Source of the DNA: Escherichia phage vB_EcoP_24B
Length of the DNA stretch: 57,677 bases
Direction: 5' to 3' (one strand)
Sequence record: HM208303
In this document: positions 161 to 45,552 of the stretch, one piece after another
Layout of the letters: each line of letters starts with the position of its first letter
Position numbering within the stretch: the stretch's first letter is position 1
Position numbers and translations under genes: made by a program
Notes under the pieces: model-generated
Database searches by the model: none
What the model was told of the DNA's origin: nothing
What the model saw: the letters and a program-made list of their open reading frames with translations, nothing else

Positions 161-1405
161 GTGTTTTGTTCACTTGCTAATGCGTACATATTGAGTACAG
201 AATACATTATAAACTTGTGTACAGGATATAAAGCATTGGCACTGAGTGACACCAAACTACGAGGCCTATACGGAAAACCCTACTCTGGCCCTGCTGAAAT
301 CACCGATGGTGACGGGTTAAGTGTGCGGATTACTCCAGCAGGAACTATCACGTTTCAGTACCGTTATCGCTGGAATGGTAAGCCAGTACGTCTTACTGTC
401 GGGCGCTATCCGTCCACTTCACTGAAGGACGCACGTGTTATCGTCGGTGAGATGCGCGCATTGTACATGAAGGGAGTTAACCCTAAAAATTATTTTGCCC
501 CCAGTGATGGCGAATTGACATTAAAAGAATGCCTGGATCAGTGGTGGGATAAGTATGTTAGCGGCCTGAAACCCAATACTCAGACGCTTTATAGATCTGT
601 TGTGTACAACACTATGTACACACAGTTTGAAGACTCGCCAGTTGCCGGTATCCCTGTATCGGCTTGGGCTCGCTTTTTTGACAAGCAAGAAAGCCTCAAC
701 AAGAAAAAGGCTCGTGTTCTGTTGTTACAACTGCGTTCAGTTATTAACTGGTGTATCAGCCGCCAGTTAATCCCATCATGCGAATTACTCAAACTTAGTG
801 TAAAGAATATTGGGAAGAAACCAGATGTGGGGAGTCGCGTACTTACCTATACGGAACTGGCAAAGATCTGGCTGACACTGGAGAACTCAAAAGTGGTTAC
901 TTCCAACAAGCTGTTACATCAATTGCTATTGCTATGGGGGGCCAGGCTTTCTGAGCTACGTCTCGCTACAGCCAGTGAGTTCAACATGGAAGATCTGGTC
1001 TGGACAACCCCTAAAGAGCATTCAAAGATGGGTAATATTATCCGGCGTCCGATATTTACTCAGGTTGAGCCTTATATTGAGCGATTGCTTAATATCGGAT
1101 TTGATGTGCTGTTCCCTGGGCAGGAAATAGATAAACCTATTGACCGTTCGTCTGCTAATTTGTACATGAAAAAACTCAGGGCGAAAATTGATATTCCTGA
1201 ATGGAGAACGCATGATTTTAGGCGTTCTCTGGTAACGAATTTATCTGGGGAAGGAATTATGCCCCACGTCACTGAAAAAATGCTGGGGCATGAACTGGGA
1301 GGAGTGATGGCCGTGTATAATAAACACGACTGGTTGTCGGAACAGAAAGATGCGTATGAGTTGTATGCTGATAAAATTTTCTGGCACGCTAAACAGCTCG
1401 GTTAA
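161..1405 (+). CDS. int: Tyrosine recombinase / phage integrase (P4 / CP4-57 IntA-like)
   Basis: 414-codon ORF; N-terminal LSDTKLRGLYGKP region and C-terminal HDFRRS...LGH...Y context typical of tyrosine integrases. Codon 161 is GTG, so the true start is uncertain within the first ~70 nt. Opposite in orientation to the early-left operon. Confidence 0.85.
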   Translation: MFCSLANAYILSTEYIINLCTGYKALALSDTKLRGLYGKPYSGPAEITDGDGLSVRITPAGTITFQYRYRWNGKPVRLTVGRYPSTSLKDARVIVGEMRALYMKGVNPKNYFAPSDGELTLKECLDQWWDKYVSGLKPNTQTLYRSVVYNTMYTQFEDSPVAGIPVSAWARFFDKQESLNKKKARVLLLQLRSVINWCISRQLIPSCELLKLSVKNIGKKPDVGSRVLTYTELAKIWLTLENSKVVTSNKLLHQLLLLWGARLSELRLATASEFNMEDLVWTTPKEHSKMGNIIRRPIFTQVEPYIERLLNIGFDVLFPGQEIDKPIDRSSANLYMKKLRAKIDIPEWRTHDFRRSLVTNLSGEGIMPHVTEKMLGHELGGVMAVYNKHDWLSEQKDAYELYADKIFWHAKQLG

Positions 1406-1571
1406 TTCCTCCGGATTTAAGCCATTGTTCAACGGCCTGACGGCTATATCGCGCCGGATGAGTAAGTACTGGATCAGGGAATCCGTGTTTTTTTCGCAAA
1501 TTATACAAAGCTGTGCGCCTTTTTTGTAACAACTCAGAAACTTCTTTTTCGGTCATTAAGTTGATTTCCAT
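1389..1571 (-). CDS. alpA: AlpA-family excisionase / DNA-binding regulator
   Basis: 60 aa, MerR-like HTH (EKEVSELLQKRRTALYNLRKKHGFP); adjacent to and convergent with int. Confidence 0.7.
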   Translation of the reverse strand: MEINLMTEKEVSELLQKRRTALYNLRKKHGFPDPVLTHPARYSRQAVEQWLKSGGINRAV

Positions 1572-1612
1572 AGTATGCTCTCCTTTTCTACATGTTTTTC
1601 AACAGCATAATA

Positions 1613-1630
1613 AACCGCCCGAAGGCGGTT
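1613..1630 (-). terminator. Hairpin (AACCGCC-CGAA-GGCGGTT) followed on the minus strand by a U-rich tract
   Basis: Perfect 7-bp stem seen directly; lies just downstream of the minus-strand ORF ending at 1632. Confidence 0.4.
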
Positions 1631-1631
1631 G

Positions 1632-1883
1632 TTAGTTGATTGATGTACGGCGCATTTTTCGAAGGCTGGCAATATGCTTTTCCTTCTCAATTTCCGCTTT
1701 AATCATATGCAGTTCGTTGTGCTCTATTCGCTCAAATTCTTCATTAAATGCACCAATTGAAGTGGCTCTGGTTCTGCCGTCGAGCCTTCGGTAGATCACC
1801 TGAGTCAGAGTTACCTTGCATATTTCTACCGGATAGTTGTTGGCATCAACGAAAGACTGCCCGCGCTGGATCAGGACGAACAC
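1632..1883 (-). CDS. Hypothetical protein (83 aa)
   Basis: ORF whose start overlaps the end of the upstream minus-strand ORF; no recognisable motif. Confidence 0.4.
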   Translation of the reverse strand: MFVLIQRGQSFVDANNYPVEICKVTLTQVIYRRLDGRTRATSIGAFNEEFERIEHNELHMIKAEIEKEKHIASLRKMRRTSIN

Positions 1884-2251
1884 TGGTTGTATTCCTTGAG
1901 TGCCATATCATAAACACGGCATGCCGAGAGGTGTGTTGTAGTCAACGTCGTTCGTATCCTGAAAAGTCCATGTGTTGTGACGGTAACTTCCGGGGCTTTG
2001 AGTTTCACTGCATCAACGATATGCTGATGTTTGCGGCTTTCGAATATAGAGCTGGAGATAACCACACTTGCTGTTAAACCGTAACTTTCAAATGTGATTT
2101 TCATGTCATTATCCTCGCAGTTAGCCGGGCAACAAAAATAAATAATGTTGTTCCTGCGAATAACAGGATACCGCCCGTCATTAGAGAAAGGAAAAACAAT
2201 ATTAATGTACGCGGTTTGTTTCTCAAAATATTCTCTCTGTGATTCGCTCAC
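1871..2251 (-). CDS. Hypothetical protein (126 aa; alternative 77-aa form from ATG at 2103 preceded by GAGGA)
   Basis: ATGA overlap with the upstream ORF at 2248-2251; internal ATG at 2103 has a strong Shine-Dalgarno sequence. Confidence 0.45.
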   Translation of the reverse strand: MSESQREYFEKQTAYINIVFPFSNDGRYPVIRRNNIIYFCCPANCEDNDMKITFESYGLTASVVISSSIFESRKHQHIVDAVKLKAPEVTVTTHGLFRIRTTLTTTHLSACRVYDMALKEYNQCSS

Positions 2252-2646
2252 TCTGACAATTCGTTGATCAAGTCACGGTATTTATTCAGTTCTTGCAGCG
2301 CCTTACATGCACCCTCCCATCGTTTCTGTTTCCGCCCGGCGCGGCGCGCTTCTTTCCGTGATTTACGTAGCAGGTCACCTATAATGTTGTGCTGCACTGG
2401 CTGCACTGGCTGCACTGGCTGCACTGGCTGCACTGGCTGCACTGGCTGCACTGGGGCGATATTTGGTTTTTTGTCCACTTCCCTTGCAACTGCCTGCCAG
2501 ATGCCATTTTTTACAGTTACTACCCCCTGGTTTTTTAACTTCCATAGAGTGTCAATAACGTCATTCAAATCAATATTGAGACCTTTAGAAATACTTTCGG
2601 CTGATGCTTTTCCTAATTTGTTCAATTCTGTGAGCACTGCGTTCAT
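2248..2646 (-). CDS. Small putative DNA-binding protein with a (Pro-Val-Gln)x7 linker
   Basis: 132-aa ORF; N-terminal HTH-like region, central PVQ x7 encoded by a 9-bp tandem repeat, basic C-terminus (RKSRKEARRAGRKQKR). Confidence 0.6.
   Translation of the reverse strand: MNAVLTELNKLGKASAESISKGLNIDLNDVIDTLWKLKNQGVVTVKNGIWQAVAREVDKKPNIAPVQPVQPVQPVQPVQPVQPVQHNIIGDLLRKSRKEARRAGRKQKRWEGACKALQELNKYRDLINELSE
2392..2454. repeat. Perfect 9-bp tandem repeat CTGCACTGG x7 (in-frame, encodes PVQ on the minus strand)
   Basis: Counted directly in the sequence. Confidence 0.95.
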
Positions 2647-2681
2647 TTTTTTCTCCTGATATTTTAATGTCGGTGGGGCTG

Positions 2682-2897
2682 TTATACGGTTGGTGAGGTG
2701 TCAGCTTCTTCTACCAGCTTTTCCAGTTCATCCAGCTTTCGGGAAAGAATTTCACCAAACAGATGAAGTTCTGCATCTGCTGTAATCGGGATTGGAACAA
2801 ATCGTATTCCACTTCTGGCAAGTTGCAGGTTAGCCACGGTTAACCTCCTGCGGCGGTTCCGGTAGCGGCATCCAGTGTGACGGTTTCCACGACGCAC
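2682..2897 (-). CDS. Small protein, paralog of the lambda orf63-like ORF at 4344-4535
   Basis: Shares the RFVPIPxxxDxExH motif with the 4344-4535 ORF; overlaps the upstream ORF by 68 nt. Confidence 0.45.
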   Translation of the reverse strand: MRRGNRHTGCRYRNRRRRLTVANLQLARSGIRFVPIPITADAELHLFGEILSRKLDELEKLVEEADTSPTV

Positions 2898-3735
2898 CAG
2901 GAATTATCCACCCATCATTAGCGTCAGGATGCCCCGGGATGTAAGTCGCCCACTTCATTCGCCAGTCACCTTTCCTGTCAAACTCCACGGCAACAAGAAC
3001 GGCTGTTTTGGTATCCGGCATTCGCTCACTACAACTTATCCAACCATCCGGAGTTACCGGAGAGTTGCCAGACAGCGCATTCTGCAACCGTTCCAGCTTA
3101 ACGTATTCCTGAACCCTGTTTCCGTCGCACGCCTGAAGCCATTGCTCAGCCTTTTGCGCATCAGTGTGAAAGGCACAAGTGCGACCGTCATCAAATTGCA
3201 TTTCGTAGAGGTTAGCAATCTGTTCAAACTGCGTGTGTGGCAACTTGTAAGTTTGGCTTACGAGTTCGGCTTCCAGTTCTGCTATGCGCTTCTCTGATGC
3301 TTCAAGTAACGCCTGCTTATCGCGTAGCGCTTCTTCCAGTTCAGCAACATGGCATTCACTATCAATAAGGTTGTTCTCTGCTGCTCCCAGCTCAACTCTC
3401 AGCTTCCCAACCGTAAGCGCAATCTCCTCGTTCTCCTGGTCGCGGCGTTTGATGTATTGCTGGTTTCTTTCCTGTTCATCCAGCAGTGCCAGCACGGTAG
3501 CCGGGTTAGCCTCTGCTATGAATTCAGCGTTTGCATAAGCCTGATCATCTGATTCAATCAGGCAGTTAACATGACATTCCGCAATCACGCCACCGGGTTC
3601 TCCTTTCCATTTTTGGCAAACAAAAACTCCTGTTAAATTGCCGTGCTGGTTAACAGATGTATGCCCTACGATGTAGCTTCCTTTAGTTGCTTTCTCTGCC
3701 TTTTCACGCAGTGCCTGATAATTAATTTCGCTCAC
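2830..3735 (-). CDS. Ead/Ea22-like early protein with C-terminal DUF551-like domain
   Basis: 301 aa; coiled-coil middle; C-terminal DGWISCSERMPD...WMPLPEPP resembles DUF551 as recalled from lambdoid early regions. Confidence 0.6.
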   Translation of the reverse strand: MSEINYQALREKAEKATKGSYIVGHTSVNQHGNLTGVFVCQKWKGEPGGVIAECHVNCLIESDDQAYANAEFIAEANPATVLALLDEQERNQQYIKRRDQENEEIALTVGKLRVELGAAENNLIDSECHVAELEEALRDKQALLEASEKRIAELEAELVSQTYKLPHTQFEQIANLYEMQFDDGRTCAFHTDAQKAEQWLQACDGNRVQEYVKLERLQNALSGNSPVTPDGWISCSERMPDTKTAVLVAVEFDRKGDWRMKWATYIPGHPDANDGWIIPGASWKPSHWMPLPEPPQEVNRG

Positions 3736-3953
3736 TTCGAACCTCTCTGTTTACTGATAAGCTCCAGATCCTCCTGGCAACTTGCACAAGTCCGACAACC
3801 CTGAACGGCCAGGCGTCTTCGCTCATCTATGGGATCGCCACACTCGCAACAATGAGTGGCAGATATAGCCTGGTGGTTCAGGCGGCGCATTTTTATTGCT
3901 GTGTTGCGCTGTAATTCTTCAATTTCTGATGCTGAATCAATGAGGTCTGCCAT
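3732..3953 (-). CDS. DksA/TraR-family C4 zinc-finger protein
   Basis: 73 aa with CxxC...CxxC (CCECGDPIDERRR...CRTCASCQ). Confidence 0.7.
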   Translation of the reverse strand: MADLIDSASEIEELQRNTAIKMRRLNHQAISATHCCECGDPIDERRRLAVQGCRTCASCQEDLELISKQRGSK

Positions 3954-4051
3954 CTTTCATTAATCCCTGAATTGTTGGTTAATACGCTTGAGGGTGAATG
4001 CGAATAATAAAAAAGGAGCCTGTAGCTCCCTGATGATTTTGCTTTTCATGT

Positions 4052-4333
4052 TCACCGTTCCTTAAAGACGCCGTTTAACATGCCGATCGCCAGACTTAAA
4101 TGAGTCGGTGTGAATCCCATTAGCGTTACCGTTTCGCGGTGCTTCTTCAGTACGCTACGGCAAATGTCATCGACGTTTTTATCCGGAAACTGCTGTCTGG
4201 CTTTTTTGATTTCAGAATTAGCCTGACGGGCAATGCTGCGAAGGGCGTTTTCCTGCTGAGGTGTCATTGAACAAGTCCCATGTCGGCAAGCATAAGCACA
4301 CAGAATATGAAGCCTGCTGCCAGAAAAATGCAT
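4052..4333 (-). CDS. Hypothetical early protein (likely start at 4267)
   Basis: ORF in the position of lambda orf61; internal Met (MTPQQEN...) is the more plausible start. Confidence 0.5.
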   Translation of the reverse strand: MHFSGSRLHILCAYACRHGTCSMTPQQENALRSIARQANSEIKKARQQFPDKNVDDICRSVLKKHRETVTLMGFTPTHLSLAIGMLNGVFKER

Positions 4334-4343
4334 TCTGTTGTTG

Positions 4344-4535
4344 TCATGCCGGGTCTCTCTCGTTTGCTTCTGCTTTCGCCGCCATCATTTCCAGCTTTTG
4401 TGAAAGGGATGTGGCTAACGTATGAAATTCTTCGTCTGTTTCTACTGGTATTGGCACAAACCTGACTCCAATTTGAGCGAGGCTATGTGCCATCCCGATA
4501 CTCGTTCTTAATTCAACAGGAGATGCTTTGTGCAT
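4344..4535 (-). CDS. Lambda orf63-like protein
   Basis: 63 aa; sequence recalled as close to lambda orf63 ([13 protein letters not shown]...RFVPIPVETDEEFH). Confidence 0.6.
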   Translation of the reverse strand: MHKASPVELRTSIGMAHSLAQIGVRFVPIPVETDEEFHTLATSLSQKLEMMAAKAEANERDPA

Positions 4536-4696
4536 ACAGCCCCTCGTTTATTATTTATCTCTTCAGCCAGCCGCTGTGCTTTCAGTGGATTTCGGATAAC
4601 AGAAAGGCCGGGAAATACCCAGCCTCGCTTTGTAACGGAGTAGACGAAAGTGATCGTGCCTACCCGGATATTATCGTGAGGATGCTTCATTACCAT
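4508..4696 (-). CDS. Lambda orf60a-like protein
   Basis: [11 protein letters not shown]...KHLLL matches lambda orf60a as recalled; start may be the ATG overlapping the exo stop (4690). Confidence 0.6.
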
Positions 4697-5367
4697 TGCT
4701 CCCCATATACAAAACCAATTTCAGCCAGTGCCTCGTCCATTTTTTCGATGAACTCCGGCACCATCTCGTCAAAACTCGCCATGTACTTTTCATTCCGCTC
4801 AATCACGACATAATGCAGGCCTTCACGCTTCATGCGCGGGTCATAGTTGGCAAAGTACCAGGCATCTTTTCGTGTCACCCACATGCTGTACTGCACCTGG
4901 GCCATGTAAGCCGATTTTATGGCCTCGAAACCACCGAGCCGGAACTTCATGAAATCCCGGGAGGTAAACGGGCATTTCAGCTCAAGGCCGTTGCCGTCAC
5001 TGCATAAACCATCGGGAGAGCAGGCGGTGCGCATACTTTCGTCGCGATAGATGATCGGGGATTCAGTAACATTCACGCCGGAAGTGAACTCAAAGAGGGT
5101 TCTGGCGTCGTTCTCGTACTGTTTTCCCCAGGCCAGAGCCTTAGCGTTAACTTCCGGAGCCACACCGGTGCAAACCTCAGCCAGCAGGGTGTGGAAGTAG
5201 GACATTTTCATGTCAGGCCACTTCTTTCCTGATCGGGGTTTTGCTATTACGTTGTGAATTTCTGAAGCTGTGATGACGCCGAGCCGTAATTTGTGCCACG
5301 CATCATCTCCCTGTTCGACAGCTCTCACGTCGATCCCAGTACGCTGCAGGATAATGTCCGGTGTCAT
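4690..5367 (-). CDS. exo: Lambda exonuclease (Red alpha)
   Basis: 225 aa, near-identical by recall to lambda Exo ([36 protein letters not shown]...). Confidence 0.95.
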
Positions 5368-6149
5368 GCTGCCACCTTCTGTTCAGTGGCTTTTTGTTTC
5401 AGGAATCCAAGAGCTTTTACTGCTTCGGCCTGTGTCAGTTCTGACGATGCACGAATGTCGCGGCGAAATATCTGGGAACAGAGCGGCAATAAGTCGTCAT
5501 CCCATGTTTTATCCAGGGCGATCAGCAGAGTGTTTATTTCCTGCATGGTTTCATCGTTAACCGGAGTGATGTCGCGTTCCGGCTGACGTTCTGCAGTGTA
5601 TGCGGTATTTTCGACAATGCGCTCGGCTTCATCCTTGTCATAGATACCAGCAAATCCGAAGGCGAGACGGGCACACTGAATCATGGCTTTATGACGTAAC
5701 ATCCGTTTGGGATGCGACTGCCACGGCCCCGTGATTTCTCTGCCTTCGCGGGTTTTGAATGGTTCGCGGCGGCATTCATCCATCCACTCGGTAACGCAGA
5801 TCGGATGATTACGGTCCTTGCGGTAAATCCGGCATGTGCAGGATTCATTGTCCTGCTCAAAGTCCATGCCATCAAACTGCTGGTTTTCGTTGATGATGCG
5901 GGACCAGCCATCAACGCCCACCACCGGAACGATGCCGTTCTGCTTATCAGGGAAGGCGTAAATTTCTTTCGTCCACGGATTAAGGCCGTACTGGTTGGCG
6001 ACGATCAGCAATGCGATGAACTGCGCATCGCTGGCATCACCTTTAAATGCCGTCTGGCGAAGAGTGGTGATCAGTTCCTGTGGGTCGACAGAATCCATGC
6101 CGACACGTTCAGCCAGCTTCCCAGCCAGCGTTGCGAGTGCTGTACTCAT
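5364..6149 (-). CDS. bet: Bet single-strand annealing protein (Red beta)
   Basis: 261 aa, near-identical by recall to lambda Bet ([37 protein letters not shown]...). Confidence 0.95.
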
Positions 6150-6670: not shown

Positions 6671-6803
6671 TCTTTGGGACTCCTGGCTGATTAGGTATGT
6701 CGATAAGGCGTTTCCATCCGTCACGTAATTTACGGGTGATTCGTTCAAGTAAAGATTCGGAAGGGCAGCCAGCAACAGGCCACCCTGCAATGGCATATTG
6801 CAT
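6639..6803 (-). CDS. cIII: cIII (FtsH inhibitor, lysogeny promoting)
   Basis: Internal Met of the 6639-6875 ORF gives 54 aa MQYAIAGWPVAGCPSESLLERITRKLRDGWKRL..., matching lambda cIII. Confidence 0.85.
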   Translation of the reverse strand: MQYAIAGWPVAGCPSESLLERITRKLRDGWKRLIDIPNQPGVPKNGSNTYGYPD

Positions 6804-6875
6804 GGTGTGCTCCTTATTTATACATAACGAAAAACGCCTCGAGTGAAGCGTTATTGGTATGCGGTAAAGCCGCAC

Positions 6876-12407: not shown

Positions 12408-12551
12408 ATGCGAAAAACGCAGGAAAATAAACGCGTTAATCACCGAAAAGATGTGCTACGTGACCAGTTTTATCAGGGGGTTAATCCAGCAATAGCTGTG
12501 CCACTGAGAGAAATACTTAACAGGTACAAAACTTCGGAGAAGTCAAAATGA
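12408..12551 (+). CDS. Small basic ORF (47 aa) between cII and the initiator
   Basis: Distal part of track ORF 12240-12551; ATG at 12408 preceded by GAGG; ATGA overlap with the next gene. Confidence 0.3.
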   Translation: MRKTQENKRVNHRKDVLRDQFYQGVNPAIAVPLREILNRYKTSEKSK

Positions 12552-13324
12552 GCATGAATCTTATGGCTAAGGCCATGAATATAAAGGTTGGCAACCCACT
12601 GAGAAAACTGGTTCTGATTAAACTTGCCGATAACGCCAATGATAATGGCGAATGCTGGCCTTCATATCAACATGTCGCTGACCAGTGTGAGGTGAGCAGA
12701 TCGACAGTAAAAAGTCACATTAGGGCACTGGAAGAGATGGGGCTTTTGAAAAGGGAATTCAGAAGAAAAGGAGAGCTTAACCAGTCAAACGTTTTTTATC
12801 TGACGCTGGATAATGCACAACAAATCCAACCAGAATCAGGTGGGGCAGGAGCTGCCCGGGGTGGGGCAGGAGCTGCCCTAGGGGGTGGGGCAGGAGCTGC
12901 CCCCAGAACCTATCACTCTTTTGAACCAGTCAATGAACCTAAAAACATTATGTTCGAACATGTCCGAACAGAGTGTGAAAAAACTCCTGACCGTCACGAA
13001 GAAACCGACAAGGCATTCGAGGAAATATTCTGGTGTGCAGGCATGCGGAAAGCCGGGAAGAAAAACGCAGCTTCAGCATTCAGAACACAGTTCAGGGAAT
13101 GGCGTAAAACTACCAGGGGGACGGCAAGCGAGTTTGCCACGATGCTGGCAGAAGACATTGCGTGCAGGCTCGGTAAGCAGTTCGGGTTCGACAGGTTGTT
13201 ACCATCGAGCTACCTGAACGGTCAACGCTGGAACGACGAGAAGCCAGAAACTATTCAACCACAATCCAAACCATCATCCGCAATCACCGTATCGAAAACT
13301 GGCTACGTGTTTTTCGACAGGTGA
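12548..13324 (+). CDS. Replication initiator (O-like, N-terminal winged HTH) containing an iteron array
   Basis: 258 aa; HTH-like N-terminus; central GGAGAA repeats encoded by iterons, analogous to lambda ori inside O. Confidence 0.6.
   Translation: MSMNLMAKAMNIKVGNPLRKLVLIKLADNANDNGECWPSYQHVADQCEVSRSTVKSHIRALEEMGLLKREFRRKGELNQSNVFYLTLDNAQQIQPESGGAGAARGGAGAALGGGAGAAPRTYHSFEPVNEPKNIMFEHVRTECEKTPDRHEETDKAFEEIFWCAGMRKAGKKNAASAFRTQFREWRKTTRGTASEFATMLAEDIACRLGKQFGFDRLLPSSYLNGQRWNDEKPETIQPQSKPSSAITVSKTGYVFFDR
12839..12902. repeat. Three direct copies of GGTGGGGCAGGAGCTGCCC (iteron-like, each an imperfect palindrome)
   Basis: Copies start at 12839, 12860 and 12884, inside the initiator gene. Confidence 0.5.
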
Positions 13325-17159: not shown

Positions 17160-17562
17160 CGCCATAGACGCCATTCTCTCACTACCCATCGACGACAAGT
17201 CACCCCACGAAGTCCACGTTAAAGAACCCAAGCGCAGCAAAGCGCAGAATGACCGTATGTGGCCGATGCTGAACGATGTTTCGCGTCAGGTGCTATGGCA
17301 TGGTCAACGGCTGGCGCCGGAAGACTGGAAAGACCTGTTCACTGCCCTGTGGCTTAAGACCAAAAAACTGGAGCAACGAAGTGTGCCTGGTATCGACGGT
17401 GGCGTTGTCATGCTTGGCGTGCGTACCAGCAAAATGCGGAAGGCCAGCATGACTGAGCTTATCGAAATCATGTTCTGGTTCGGCTCAGAGCGCAACGTGC
17501 GGTGGAGTGATGACTCCCGGCGAGAGTATGAATGGTCACAACGAAAAGGTAGGGCTGCATGA
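17116..17562 (+). CDS. ninB: NinB (Orf recombination mediator)
   Basis: Start taken at the internal ATG 17116 with GGAG upstream; resembles lambda NinB (...DVSRQV.WHG...SWK..FTA...SDD.R). Confidence 0.85.
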   Translation: MKQTFLLRNEAIRNNAIDAILSLPIDDKSPHEVHVKEPKRSKAQNDRMWPMLNDVSRQVLWHGQRLAPEDWKDLFTALWLKTKKLEQRSVPGIDGGVVMLGVRTSKMRKASMTELIEIMFWFGSERNVRWSDDSRREYEWSQRKGRAA

Positions 17563-38093: not shown

Positions 38094-40027
38094 GTGTTGT
38101 TGTTTCGGGGACGCTGAAATCTCCTGATGGTGAGGCGATATCAGGAGCAAATATTACCCTGACGGCGCTGACAGTTTCACCGGATGCGCTCAGCGGCACC
38201 AGTGCGTCGGCAGTGACCCGTGAAGGTGGATATTACGGAATGACGATGGATCCGGGGGAGTATGCGGTTTCGGTGACGGTGAAAGGGAAGACTGCTGTCT
38301 ACGGACGTGTGCGTATTGAGGGGACCGAAAGTACGGTGACGCTCAATATGCTGTTACGCCGCAGTCTTGTTGAGGTTAGCATACCCGGAGAACTGCTGAC
38401 AGATTTCCGGCAGATACAGAATAATGTGGCTGATGACCTTGCCACTATTCGTCGCCTGAATGAAGACACGGCGACAAAAAACACTCAGGCCACACAGTCA
38501 AAAGAAAGTGCAGCAGCCAGTGCGAAGAGTGCATCTGACAGTGCAAAGACGGCAACCAGCAGGGCGGCTGAAGCCGGACAAAAAGCGACTGATGCCACTG
38601 AGGCTGCGACCCGTGCAGTCACAGCAGCGGGGAATGCAGAGGAAAGCTCGACCCGTGCCGGAGAGTCTGAAAAAGCCGCCGGAGCTGATGCAGAAAAAGC
38701 CAGACAGCATGCTGAAAAGGCCAGGCTGGCGCAGGAGAGCGCCGGAGAGATCCTTAAGCGGGCAGAGGCTGCCACTGTCAGTGCTGAAGAGGCCAGACGT
38801 ATGGCTGAGAATGCACGGGGGCCCCGGGGGCCTCAGGGAGAAACTGGTCCGAAGGGGGATGTCGGTCCTAAAGGCGAAACAGGTCCAGTGGGCCCTCAAG
38901 GGCCCGCAGGGCCGAAAGGTGAGCGTGGTGACGTTGGTGCTCAGGGGGCTGTAGGGCCTGCTGGTCCGCGTGGTGAGAAGGGCGAACAGGGGGAGCGAGG
39001 ACCGCAGGGAATACCAGGCCTGAAGGGGGATACCGGAGAGCGGGGGCCTAAAGGGGACCAGGGGGATATGGGGCCAAAAGGCGAGAAAGGTGATCCGGGA
39101 GGTCCTGCAGGCCCGCAAGGTCCTAAAGGCGAACGAGGAGAAGCCGGACCACAGGGACCGATGGGAGCACGAGGTGAGCGTGGGGAGACTGGCCCCCGAG
39201 GTGAACCTGGTCCTGCAGGTCCGAGAGGCGAACGAGGAGAGACCGGACCTCAGGGACCTCGTGGAGAGCCAGGTCCGGCAGGCAGCGCTGCAAATGTGGC
39301 TGATGCAACGACGGCACAGAAGGGAATTGTGCAGTTAAGCAGCGCAACGGACAGTGATGATGAAACGAAGGCTGCCACCCCGAAAGCGGTGAAAGCGGCA
39401 ATGGATGTGGCAAATGAAGCGAAAACAAAGGCAGAAGAGGCTGCAGCAGGAGGTGGTGTTCCCGGTCCGAAAGGAGATAAAGGGGACACGGGGCCAGCAG
39501 GTCCGGCTGGGCCGAAGGGTGATAAGGGAGAGCGCGGTGACACCGGCCCTGTCGGGGCAACCGGCGAACGGGGACCGGCAGGTGATGCTGGTCCGGCAGG
39601 CCCGCAGGGGCCGAAAGGTGACAGGGGAGAGCGGGGAGAGACCGGTCTGACGGGAAATGCAGGTCCACAGGGTCCAAAGGGAGATACCGGTGCGGCAGGC
39701 CCGGCAGGCCCACAGGGACCGAAAGGAGAAACAGGTGCGGCAGGCCCGGTGGGGGCGACCGGACCTCAGGGGCCGAAGGGCGACCCGGGGGAGACGCAAA
39801 TACGGTTCCGTCTGGGGCCGGGAAACATTATTGAGACAAACAGCCATGGCTGGTTCCCGGATACAGATGGCGCACTCATCACCGGACTGACCTTTCTTGA
39901 CCCCAAAGATGCCACACGGGTTCAGGGTTTTTTTCAGCATTTGCAGGTCAGGTTTGGTGACGGGCCGTGGCAGGATGTCAAGGGGCTGGATGAAGTGGGC
40001 AGTGATACAGGCAGAACAGGAGAATGA
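38090..40027 (+). CDS. Tail fibre protein with Stf-like N-terminus and collagen-like Gly-X-Y repeats
   Basis: 645 aa; N-terminus [14 protein letters not shown] and [25 protein letters not shown] resemble lambda Stf as recalled; two long GXY blocks. Confidence 0.8.
38815..39790. repeat. Collagen-like Gly-X-Y coding repeats (two blocks, GC-rich)
   Basis: Runs of GPxGxxG triplets in the translation; approximate boundaries. Confidence 0.85.
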
Positions 40028-44817: not shown

Positions 44818-45552
44818 ATGAAGAGTATAGCAACACTGGTTGTGTGTGCAATCTCCGGGATTGCCTGTGTAAATTTATCTGCACATGCAGCAGAAGGAGA
44901 GCATACAATTTCTCTGGGGTATGCGCACTTTCAGTTTCCGGGACTGAAGGATTTTGTAAAGGATGCGACTGCTCATAACAGGGAGACTTTCAGTCATTTC
45001 GTCAACAGAAACTACTTTTCTTCATTGGGCGAATATACAGATGGTCGGGTCAGTGGATATGAAGGCAAGGATAAAAATCCACAGGGCATTAATATCAGGT
45101 ATCGCTACGAGATAACGGATGATTTTGGCGTTATCACCTCTTTTACATGGACGCGTTCTCTCACTAACTCACAGACATTTATTGATGTGCAGTCAGCCGA
45201 TCATACCAGGAAGATTAAGAATCCGGCAGCTTCTGCCAGAACGGATATCAGGGCGAATTACTGGAGTCTGTTAGCGGGGCCTTCATGGCGGGTTAATCAG
45301 TACATGAGTTTATATGCGATGGCAGGGATGGGCGTTGCTAAAGTTAGCGCTGACCTGAAAATTAAGGACAATATTAACAGTAGTGGCGGATTTTCTGAAA
45401 GCAACAGCACGAAAAAAACCTCCCTTGCGTGGGCTGCAGGTGCACAGTTTAACCTGAATGAGAGTGTTACACTGGATGTGGCTTACGAAGGTTCCGGCTC
45501 TGGCGACTGGCGCACGAGTGGCGTTACTGCTGGCATTGGCCTGAAATTCTGA
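44818..45552 (+). CDS. lom: Lom/Ail/PagC-family outer-membrane beta-barrel protein
   Basis: 244 aa; signal peptide, alternating amphipathic strands, C-terminal ...AGIGLKF; followed by a strong terminator. Confidence 0.85.
   Translation: MKSIATLVVCAISGIACVNLSAHAAEGEHTISLGYAHFQFPGLKDFVKDATAHNRETFSHFVNRNYFSSLGEYTDGRVSGYEGKDKNPQGINIRYRYEITDDFGVITSFTWTRSLTNSQTFIDVQSADHTRKIKNPAASARTDIRANYWSLLAGPSWRVNQYMSLYAMAGMGVAKVSADLKIKDNINSSGGFSESNSTKKTSLAWAAGAQFNLNESVTLDVAYEGSGSGDWRTSGVTAGIGLKF

Follow-up and report, generated by a model that had tools for sequence, protein, structure and literature searches.

VNTR loci used for the MLVA typing of E. coli O157 are in-frame tandem repeats that create disordered regions. 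Perfect amino-acid tandem repeats have also been described in Borg elements (PMC9879509). In both cases, as in the array considered here, the units are perfect and a multiple of 3 bp in length. The closest description concerns the same protein. In the section of Donaldson 2021 devoted to it (Antibiotics 10:1282; PMC8614690, section 5.2, Fig. 9), a model was given for gp05 (vb_24B_3c) of phage Φ24B. [quoted passage not shown] Sso10a was taken as the architectural template, and Gp05 was called a 'possible transcription factor'. The AlphaFold dimer was poorly packed, and the long linker was thought to let the winged-helix heads reach sites tens of bp apart. Whether gp05 is expressed was stated there as unknown. 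The section treats the repeat as fixed and does not bring in copy-number polymorphism, the DUF1627 link, a second synonymous allele, or the CMAT clones.

Lambdoid prophage proteins of the Pfam family PF07789 (DUF1627) have a common C-terminal helix, with the consensus ANRELRRAKxxVQKWERVCAALRELNKHRDIV. The archaeal wHTH proteins Sso10a (1R7J) and AspA (5K5Q) combine a small winged helix with a helical dimerisation element, like the layout predicted for Gp05. No paper besides Donaldson 2021 was found under the locus tag vb_24B_3c, and searches of the literature with the 9-bp unit and its rotations returned unrelated primer or sequence matches only. Searches on DUF1627, on VNTR together with Stx phage, and on the LC645xxx phages gave nothing about the PVQ repeat. 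The only tandem repeat mentioned in an O104:H4 comparison paper is one of 944 bp elsewhere, and no publication naming the gp05 repeat as a typing locus was found.

The window studied here is the whole 57,677-nucleotide sequence of Escherichia phage vB_EcoP_24B (HM208303). The CDSs in Table 1 of Riley 2012 correspond one for one to its ORFs, e.g., 38090-40027, 17559-18086, 49148-57571, 44818-45552, and 2248-2646. The gp05 gene lies between xis and exo on the strand transcribed from pL, as a lambdoid exo-xis (early-left, pL) gene. The features of the region are the following.

161-1405, plus strand: integrase
1389-1571, minus strand: excisionase-like (xis-like) HTH protein
1632-1883, minus strand: DUF4222 protein
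1871-2251, minus strand: 126-aa ORF
2248-2251, minus strand: GTGA, in which the gp05 stop overlaps the GTG start of ORF 1871-2251 (from the sequence)
2248-2646, minus strand: gp05 / vb_24B_3c CDS, 132 aa plus stop, a short DUF1627 member (ORF, Pfam, PHROG 1888, Riley 2012, Donaldson 2021)
2251-2391, minus strand: C-terminal basic helical domain, residues 86-132 (AF2, composition, Pfam DUF1627 match)
2392-2454, minus strand: seven perfect 9-bp units in tandem (coding strand, CCAGTGCAG), codons 65-85, (PVQ)7
2455-2490, minus strand: non-repeat linker, residues 53-64, VAREVDKKPNIA; allele 2 has VEGVGSKTDIDS here
2491-2646, minus strand: N-terminal winged helix-turn-helix, residues 1-52 (AF2, Foldseek, weak TrmB and Csa3-HTH profile matches)
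2653-2657, minus strand: Shine-Dalgarno-like AGGAG, 6 nt 5' of the ATG at 2646 (upstream sequence ...ATATCAGGAGAAAAAA-ATG)
2830-3735, minus strand: Ea22-like protein (Ead_Ea22 and DUF551)
3732-3953, minus strand: DksA/TraR-like zinc finger protein
4052-4333, 4344-4535 and 4508-4696, minus strand: three small ORFs of PHROG families of unknown function
4690-5367, minus strand: exo
5364-6149, minus strand: RecT/Bet

No terminator-like sites were found in 1300-4000, and the stop-start overlap suggests translational coupling of gp05 with ORF 1871-2251. The published Φ24B exo-xis primers (PMC10789677) match exactly at 1621-1635 (+) and 4694-4710 (-) and bracket 1621-4710. The first part of the window, 1-2817, was compared with AP012532, EU311208, AP012529, and PQ600366. 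Stx2a_F451 is 99.4% identical to the window across 93% of the first 25 kb; it has the same int and xis, carries gp05 as allele 2, and lacks the 126-aa ORF 1871-2251. The alignments of Min27 and F403 begin at ~2817 and run rightwards only, and that of Xuzhou21 begins at 3383. On these alignments the module containing gp05 is mosaic, and a junction lies immediately to the right of the gene. Neither 933W nor Sakai Sp5 has gp05.

The original prediction placed seven exact 9-bp copies in frame within the 132-aa ORF of a small protein near int, and coordinates, translation, and position all agree: the integrase ORF is ~850 bp away. On the plus strand the sequence is tgtg-(CTGCACTGG)x7-ggcga; the array opens with the C at 2392 and closes with the G at 2454. 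Read on the opposite strand, each unit is CCA GTG CAG and encodes P V Q, and the array makes up residues 65-85. Tandem Repeats Finder reports 2391-2454 with a period of 9, 7.1 copies, 100% matches, no indels, and a score of 128, so that the head-to-tail unit identity of a VNTR is complete in all 7 copies. With a two-unit probe (18 bp, at most 2 mismatches), six matches were obtained in the window, every one within the array and none elsewhere, and the expectation from 100 dinucleotide-preserving shuffles of the window was 0.00.

Other repeats and structured elements occur in the window. Within ORF 12548-13324 (+), three units of ~22-24 bp, GGTGGGGCAGGAGCTGCCC, lie at 12839-12902, each with an inverted repeat GGCAG..CTGCC; by sequence they look like origin iterons in a replication-initiator (O-like) gene. 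An in-frame repeat of 12 bp (4.4 copies, 82% matches) at 29036-29088 in ORF 28900-29706 (+), which overlaps the start of the 568-aa ORF 29687-31393, encodes a degenerate four-residue D-H-containing repeat, roughly IDHE/IDHK. Above the Rfam gathering score are the c4-a1b1, isrK, and C4 antisense-RNA cluster at 18289-18486 (+), the lambda cIII thermoregulator at 6758-6816 (-), and STnc100 with AsxR at 22902-23161. Between the latter and three tRNAs at 21679-21927 lies ORF 22125-22784 (-), of 219 aa, which we take to be the Tn9 chloramphenicol acetyltransferase in place of stx2AB (Δstx2::cat). Taken with the exact primer matches and the agreement in CDS coordinates, this ORF marks the window as the engineered phage Φ24B Δstx2::cat. 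Imperfect repeats of 45 bp x 2 and 21 bp x 2 are present at 39659-39749 and 38507-38549 in ORF 38090-40027 (+), the tail spike gene of Riley 2012 (CM1, tspS).

Of 5426 complete E. coli genomes, 304 have the gp05 gene, in each case on the chromosome; it is also present in 186 phage records, the majority of which are Stx1a- or Stx2a-converting phages. Length variation was followed in 60 evenly spaced genomes out of the 304, in the 186 phage records, and in 38 IMG/VR loci, and single cases were confirmed individually. Two alleles can be distinguished. Allele 1, the window type, consists of CCAGTGCAG units, usually with one TCAGTGCAG (SVQ) in front, and its gene measures 336 + 9n bp. In allele 2 the linker starts with EGVGSKTDIDS, the units are TCAGTTCAA, CCAGTTCAA, CCAGTTCAG, and CCAGTGCAG, and the gene measures 333 + 9n bp. 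The linker at residues 53-64 is the segment that diverges most between the two. The numbers of units in the 60-genome sample, with genomes in brackets, were as follows.

Allele 1: 2 (6), 3 (4), 4 (4), 5 (6), 6 (2), 7 (5), 8 (2), 9 (1)
Allele 2: 4 (13), 5 (11), 6 (3), 7 (1), 8 (1); 2, 3 and 9 (-)

IMG/VR extends the range to a 10-unit allele 1 and a 3-unit allele 2. The expectation that linker length would differ between isolates in frame-keeping 9-bp units was thus borne out, with 2-10 xVQ units across related Stx prophages and phages. Gene lengths proceed in 9-bp steps, from 354 to 417 and 426 bp in allele 1 and from 360 to 405 bp in allele 2, and whole 9-bp units account for the length changes in every case. 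An invariant copy number across relatives, which would have spoken against a variable repeat, was not seen; whole-unit differences separate even genomes that are otherwise identical. The Stx1a phages LC645428, LC645429, and LC645430 have 8, 6, and 7 units, although the 2300 bp to either side of the array match at 100% (4.6 kb in all). The Stx2a phages LC727848, LC727843, LC727844, and LC727858 have 7, 6, 5, and 4 units between identical flanks of 2544 and 2592 bp (5.1 kb). Among IMG/VR loci with identical 700-bp flanks, the sets of unit numbers are {7,3,3,2,2}, {10,8,7,6}, {9,5}, {6,5}, and {4,3,3}. As the flanks are identical and the unit counts differ, copy-number change must be much faster than point substitution over ~5 kb. 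From these comparisons we infer that the copy-number changes in gp05 are recent and came about by replication slippage.

The array itself arose by expansion, since one relative (P0011) has a single APVQ; in two others, P0009 and P0010, there are two units. Some lineages commonly carry 6-7 units, a pattern that ancestry or weak selection could explain. Among the sampled phage records, the allele-2 gene of the LC616xxx phages measures 387 bp in 15 and 378 bp in one. Where allele-2 arrays vary, the change is mostly in internal homogeneous units. Interrupted allele-2 arrays may be steadier, as would be expected if slippage depends here, as it usually does, on how pure the array is.

The protein had been proposed to consist of an HTH-like N-terminal domain and a basic C-terminal tail joined by the repeat as a linker. 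In the AF2 model of the monomer, made with the family alignment, residues 1-52 are predicted to form a helix-strand-helix-helix-hairpin winged helix at a pLDDT of ~85 (~79-87 along the domain; helices 2-11, 16-23, and 27-39, strands 43-46 and 49-52), with the topology H1-S1-H2-H3-S2-wing-S3. Foldseek searches of the PDB with this domain matched winged helices only (AspA, TFE-alpha, FtsK-gamma, MarR/OhrR, Z-alpha), with an rmsd of 0.8-2.7 Å over 51-62 columns. The E-values are only 6e-3 to 4e-2 because ~55 residues alone align. The best match was AspA 5k5q at 27% identity. In an alignment with ADAR1 Z-alpha made by eye, the key Asn position falls on Ile31 of Gp05, so no claim of Z-DNA binding is made. 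Residues 55-83 have a pLDDT below 50, in keeping with a linker between domains. The C-terminal part proved to be basic as expected (13 K+R vs 7 D+E in residues 86-132, pI 10.1), but it is not a loose tail: one long helix is predicted with moderate confidence at 86-122, followed by a short one at 124-131 (pLDDT 66-78). This C-terminal basic helix would probably dimerise. Gp05 may be a nucleic-acid-binding early protein with a regulator-like role.

A family context is provided by DUF1627. The Pfam match of Gp05 to PF07789 is a marginal pass (28.2 bits vs a cut-off of 28.1) and covers residues 87-128 only, at profile positions 112-153 of 155. The full length matches PHROG 1888 (function unknown) with an E-value of 1.9e-75, and the RefSeq name of the homologues is 'DUF1627 domain-containing protein'. 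In a word-indexed homologue search the repeat dominated and only close E. coli relatives came up, whereas an exhaustive HMMER search with the 2-unit protein P0003 reached the wider family. In this phmmer search against 1.84 billion representatives, nine proteins of 137-260 aa were obtained, most of them matching in two stretches, N- and C-terminal; the N-terminal stretch extends the DUF1627 homology beyond the segment matched by Pfam. Four of the nine were scanned and score 81-287 bits on PF07789. In alignment A1, 13 columns are invariant, and R101, R102, C114, A116, L117, L120, and N121 are the C-terminal ones. Distant relatives have conserved end domains and a middle that varies in length by more than 100 residues; in several of the longer proteins this middle includes a second winged-helix domain. 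Judged by these relatives, the middle region of Gp05 is length-tolerant.

Taken as a whole, the locus is likely to be a hypermutable in-frame minisatellite (VNTR) that varies by slippage in a tolerant disordered spacer, with near-neutral effects and without a switch. Slippage between perfect 9-bp units during replication would add or drop whole units, and such gains and losses would alter the number of PVQ tripeptides only, the reading frame always being kept. The PVQ tract would act as a disordered or polyproline-II-like spacer linking the winged-helix domain to the basic C-terminal helix, and its length would set the reach of the winged-helix heads. The length variation is most likely near-neutral, an argument from tolerance, because middles differing by more than 100 residues are tolerated, 2-10 units circulate, and many Stx phages do without the gene.

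The variation could also be adaptive, a 'tuning knob' in which spacer length sets the distance that dimeric Gp05 bridges between DNA sites, the variants shift lysis-lysogeny and Stx release, and they are selected in different hosts. We regard this as unlikely. It draws on the position of gp05, which belongs both to the Φ24B exo-xis fragment (1621-4710) carried on pUC18 and to the exo-xis region that, when deleted, increases lysogenisation (PMC10789677), but that fragment has about nine ORFs, of which gp05 is one. The remark in the gp05 section of Donaldson 2021 (PMC8614690) on heads reaching distant sites is in line with such bridging, and so are the persistence of a broad range of 2-10 units in nature and the conservation of PVQ at the peptide level. 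Against these stand the very different middles accepted in the family and the many Stx phages without the gene, 933W and Sakai Sp5 among them. Copy number likewise showed no association with toxin type in the phage samples, where Stx1a phages have 3-8 units and Stx2a phages 4-7. Slightly more doubtful still is the specific proposal that PVQ slippage alters the reach of a dimeric early regulator and thereby shifts the set-point between lysogeny and induction, and toxin output, between otherwise identical strains.

That the repeat acts as DNA or RNA, i.e., as protein-binding iterons, a structured element, or an sRNA whose PVQ coding is incidental, is highly improbable. In form, seven perfect direct repeats do resemble iteron arrays, and they lie near the int-xis recombination module. 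However, allele 2 changes the unit at third-codon positions and keeps PVQ, which is encoded by each of its units CCAGTTCAG, CCAGTTCAA, and CCAGTGCAG. The substitutions concerned, GTG to GTT and CAG to CAA, are synonymous in the PVQ frame only; in the remaining two sense frames they give different peptides, and in the antisense ORF 2264-2659 TGC becomes TGA. In the N-terminal domain, nine codons differ synonymously between the alleles and four non-synonymously. Synonymy confined to the PVQ frame, together with these codon differences, therefore argues that gp05 is under purifying selection as a protein and that PVQ is the selected reading. The copy number of 1 to 10, the many related phages without the gene, and the confinement of the unit to the array within the window also speak against a function as nucleic acid. 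The folding potential of the array does not exceed that of shuffled sequence on either strand (z +1.07 and +0.69), and none of the Rfam matches overlaps the locus. An RNA element at the repeat was rejected on the latter result, and hairpin-promoted slippage on the folding result.

Three further ORFs cross the array and were rejected as genes. The antisense ORF 2264-2659 is interrupted by the TGA of allele 2. The mini-ORFs 2379-2507 (-) and 2375-2545 (-) translate the array in the two remaining sense frames, as (QCS)n and (SAA)n, in which the allele-2 changes are not synonymous.

A phase-variable contingency locus, in which slippage turns the gene on and off, is hardly credible: perfect short repeats within a CDS are its classic substrate, but slippage by 9-bp units is unable to shift the frame, every full-length allele inspected has kept it, and the one truncated allele owes its frameshift to a site 5' of the array and not to a partial unit. 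This sole naturally frameshifted allele (L037; IMGVR_UViG_2751185961_000012, 3001-3368) is altered at the K59-K60 codons; its protein diverges after K59, reads the repeat as QCS, and ends at 79 aa.

Evidence bearing on expression comes from Riley 2012, where a Φ24B expression library was screened with lysogen-specific antiserum (CMAT). Three of the 23 informative clones map to the gp05 locus: CM3 (2523-2185), CM4 (3025-2375), and CM9 (2542-2940), the last assigned to the CDS 2248-2646. With inserts of ~450 bp, ~0.34 clones would be expected at the locus by chance (Poisson P ~0.005). The clones give indirect evidence that lysogen cultures, which include spontaneously induced cells, make an immunogenic product of the gp05 locus. 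CM3 and CM4 were assigned in that study to the out-of-frame mini-ORFs 2379-2507 and 2375-2545. The assignment is doubtful because both inserts hold gp05, with the repeat, in sense orientation and because allele 2 does not preserve the mini-ORF peptides; on this comparison it is probably wrong.

An in-frame VNTR in a disordered linker, such as the slippage reading makes of gp05, is otherwise a textbook case. The array is nevertheless of practical interest as a fast-evolving length marker that the Stx phage itself carries. Phages with identical 5 kb flanks can be told apart by it, so the locus could help to track sublineages within outbreaks. It also matters for the interpretation of model phages: the phenotypes of the Φ24B exo-xis fragment include gp05, a gene that 933W lacks and whose linker is not of one length in the model phages. 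The repeat is a frequent breakpoint in short-read assemblies. On 236 contigs there is a 64-aa 'partial' protein (P0029) that stops exactly at the array, and two IMG/VR contigs (L035 and L036) terminate within the array or at its edge. Truncated proteins of 60-87 aa are numerous among the database entries; several of them stop at A64, the last residue before PVQ, or only a few residues away from it.

Compared with the systems described at the outset, Gp05 has the N-terminal winged helix in common with DUF1627 proteins, as found by phmmer. Typical members are 137-260 aa long, and several longer ones have a second winged helix and a Pro/Glu/Ala-rich non-repetitive linker; Gp05 has 132 aa. Two distant DUF1627 relatives are encoded just downstream of replication genes (IstB/DnaC-like, lambda-P-like) and not beside xis, whereas the gp05 gene is near xis. 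Sso10a and AspA lack a long repeat linker, and sequence homology to them beyond the fold was not detectable, a PDB sequence profile search with Gp05 having given no significant match (E at least 0.02). The layout in the gp05 section of Donaldson 2021 (PMC8614690) is reproduced by the present AF2 and Foldseek model, and AspA is nearest in both. With the VNTRs of O157 MLVA typing and the Borg repeats, the gp05 array shares fast evolution, local expansion, and a low-complexity disordered peptide. MLVA-type loci belong to the chromosome backbone, whereas the gp05 array is carried on a mobile Stx phage. The PVQ variation is hence not new in kind, and protein and repeat had already been described for Φ24B; what is added here is the copy-number polymorphism, the family context, and the evidence for coding and expression.
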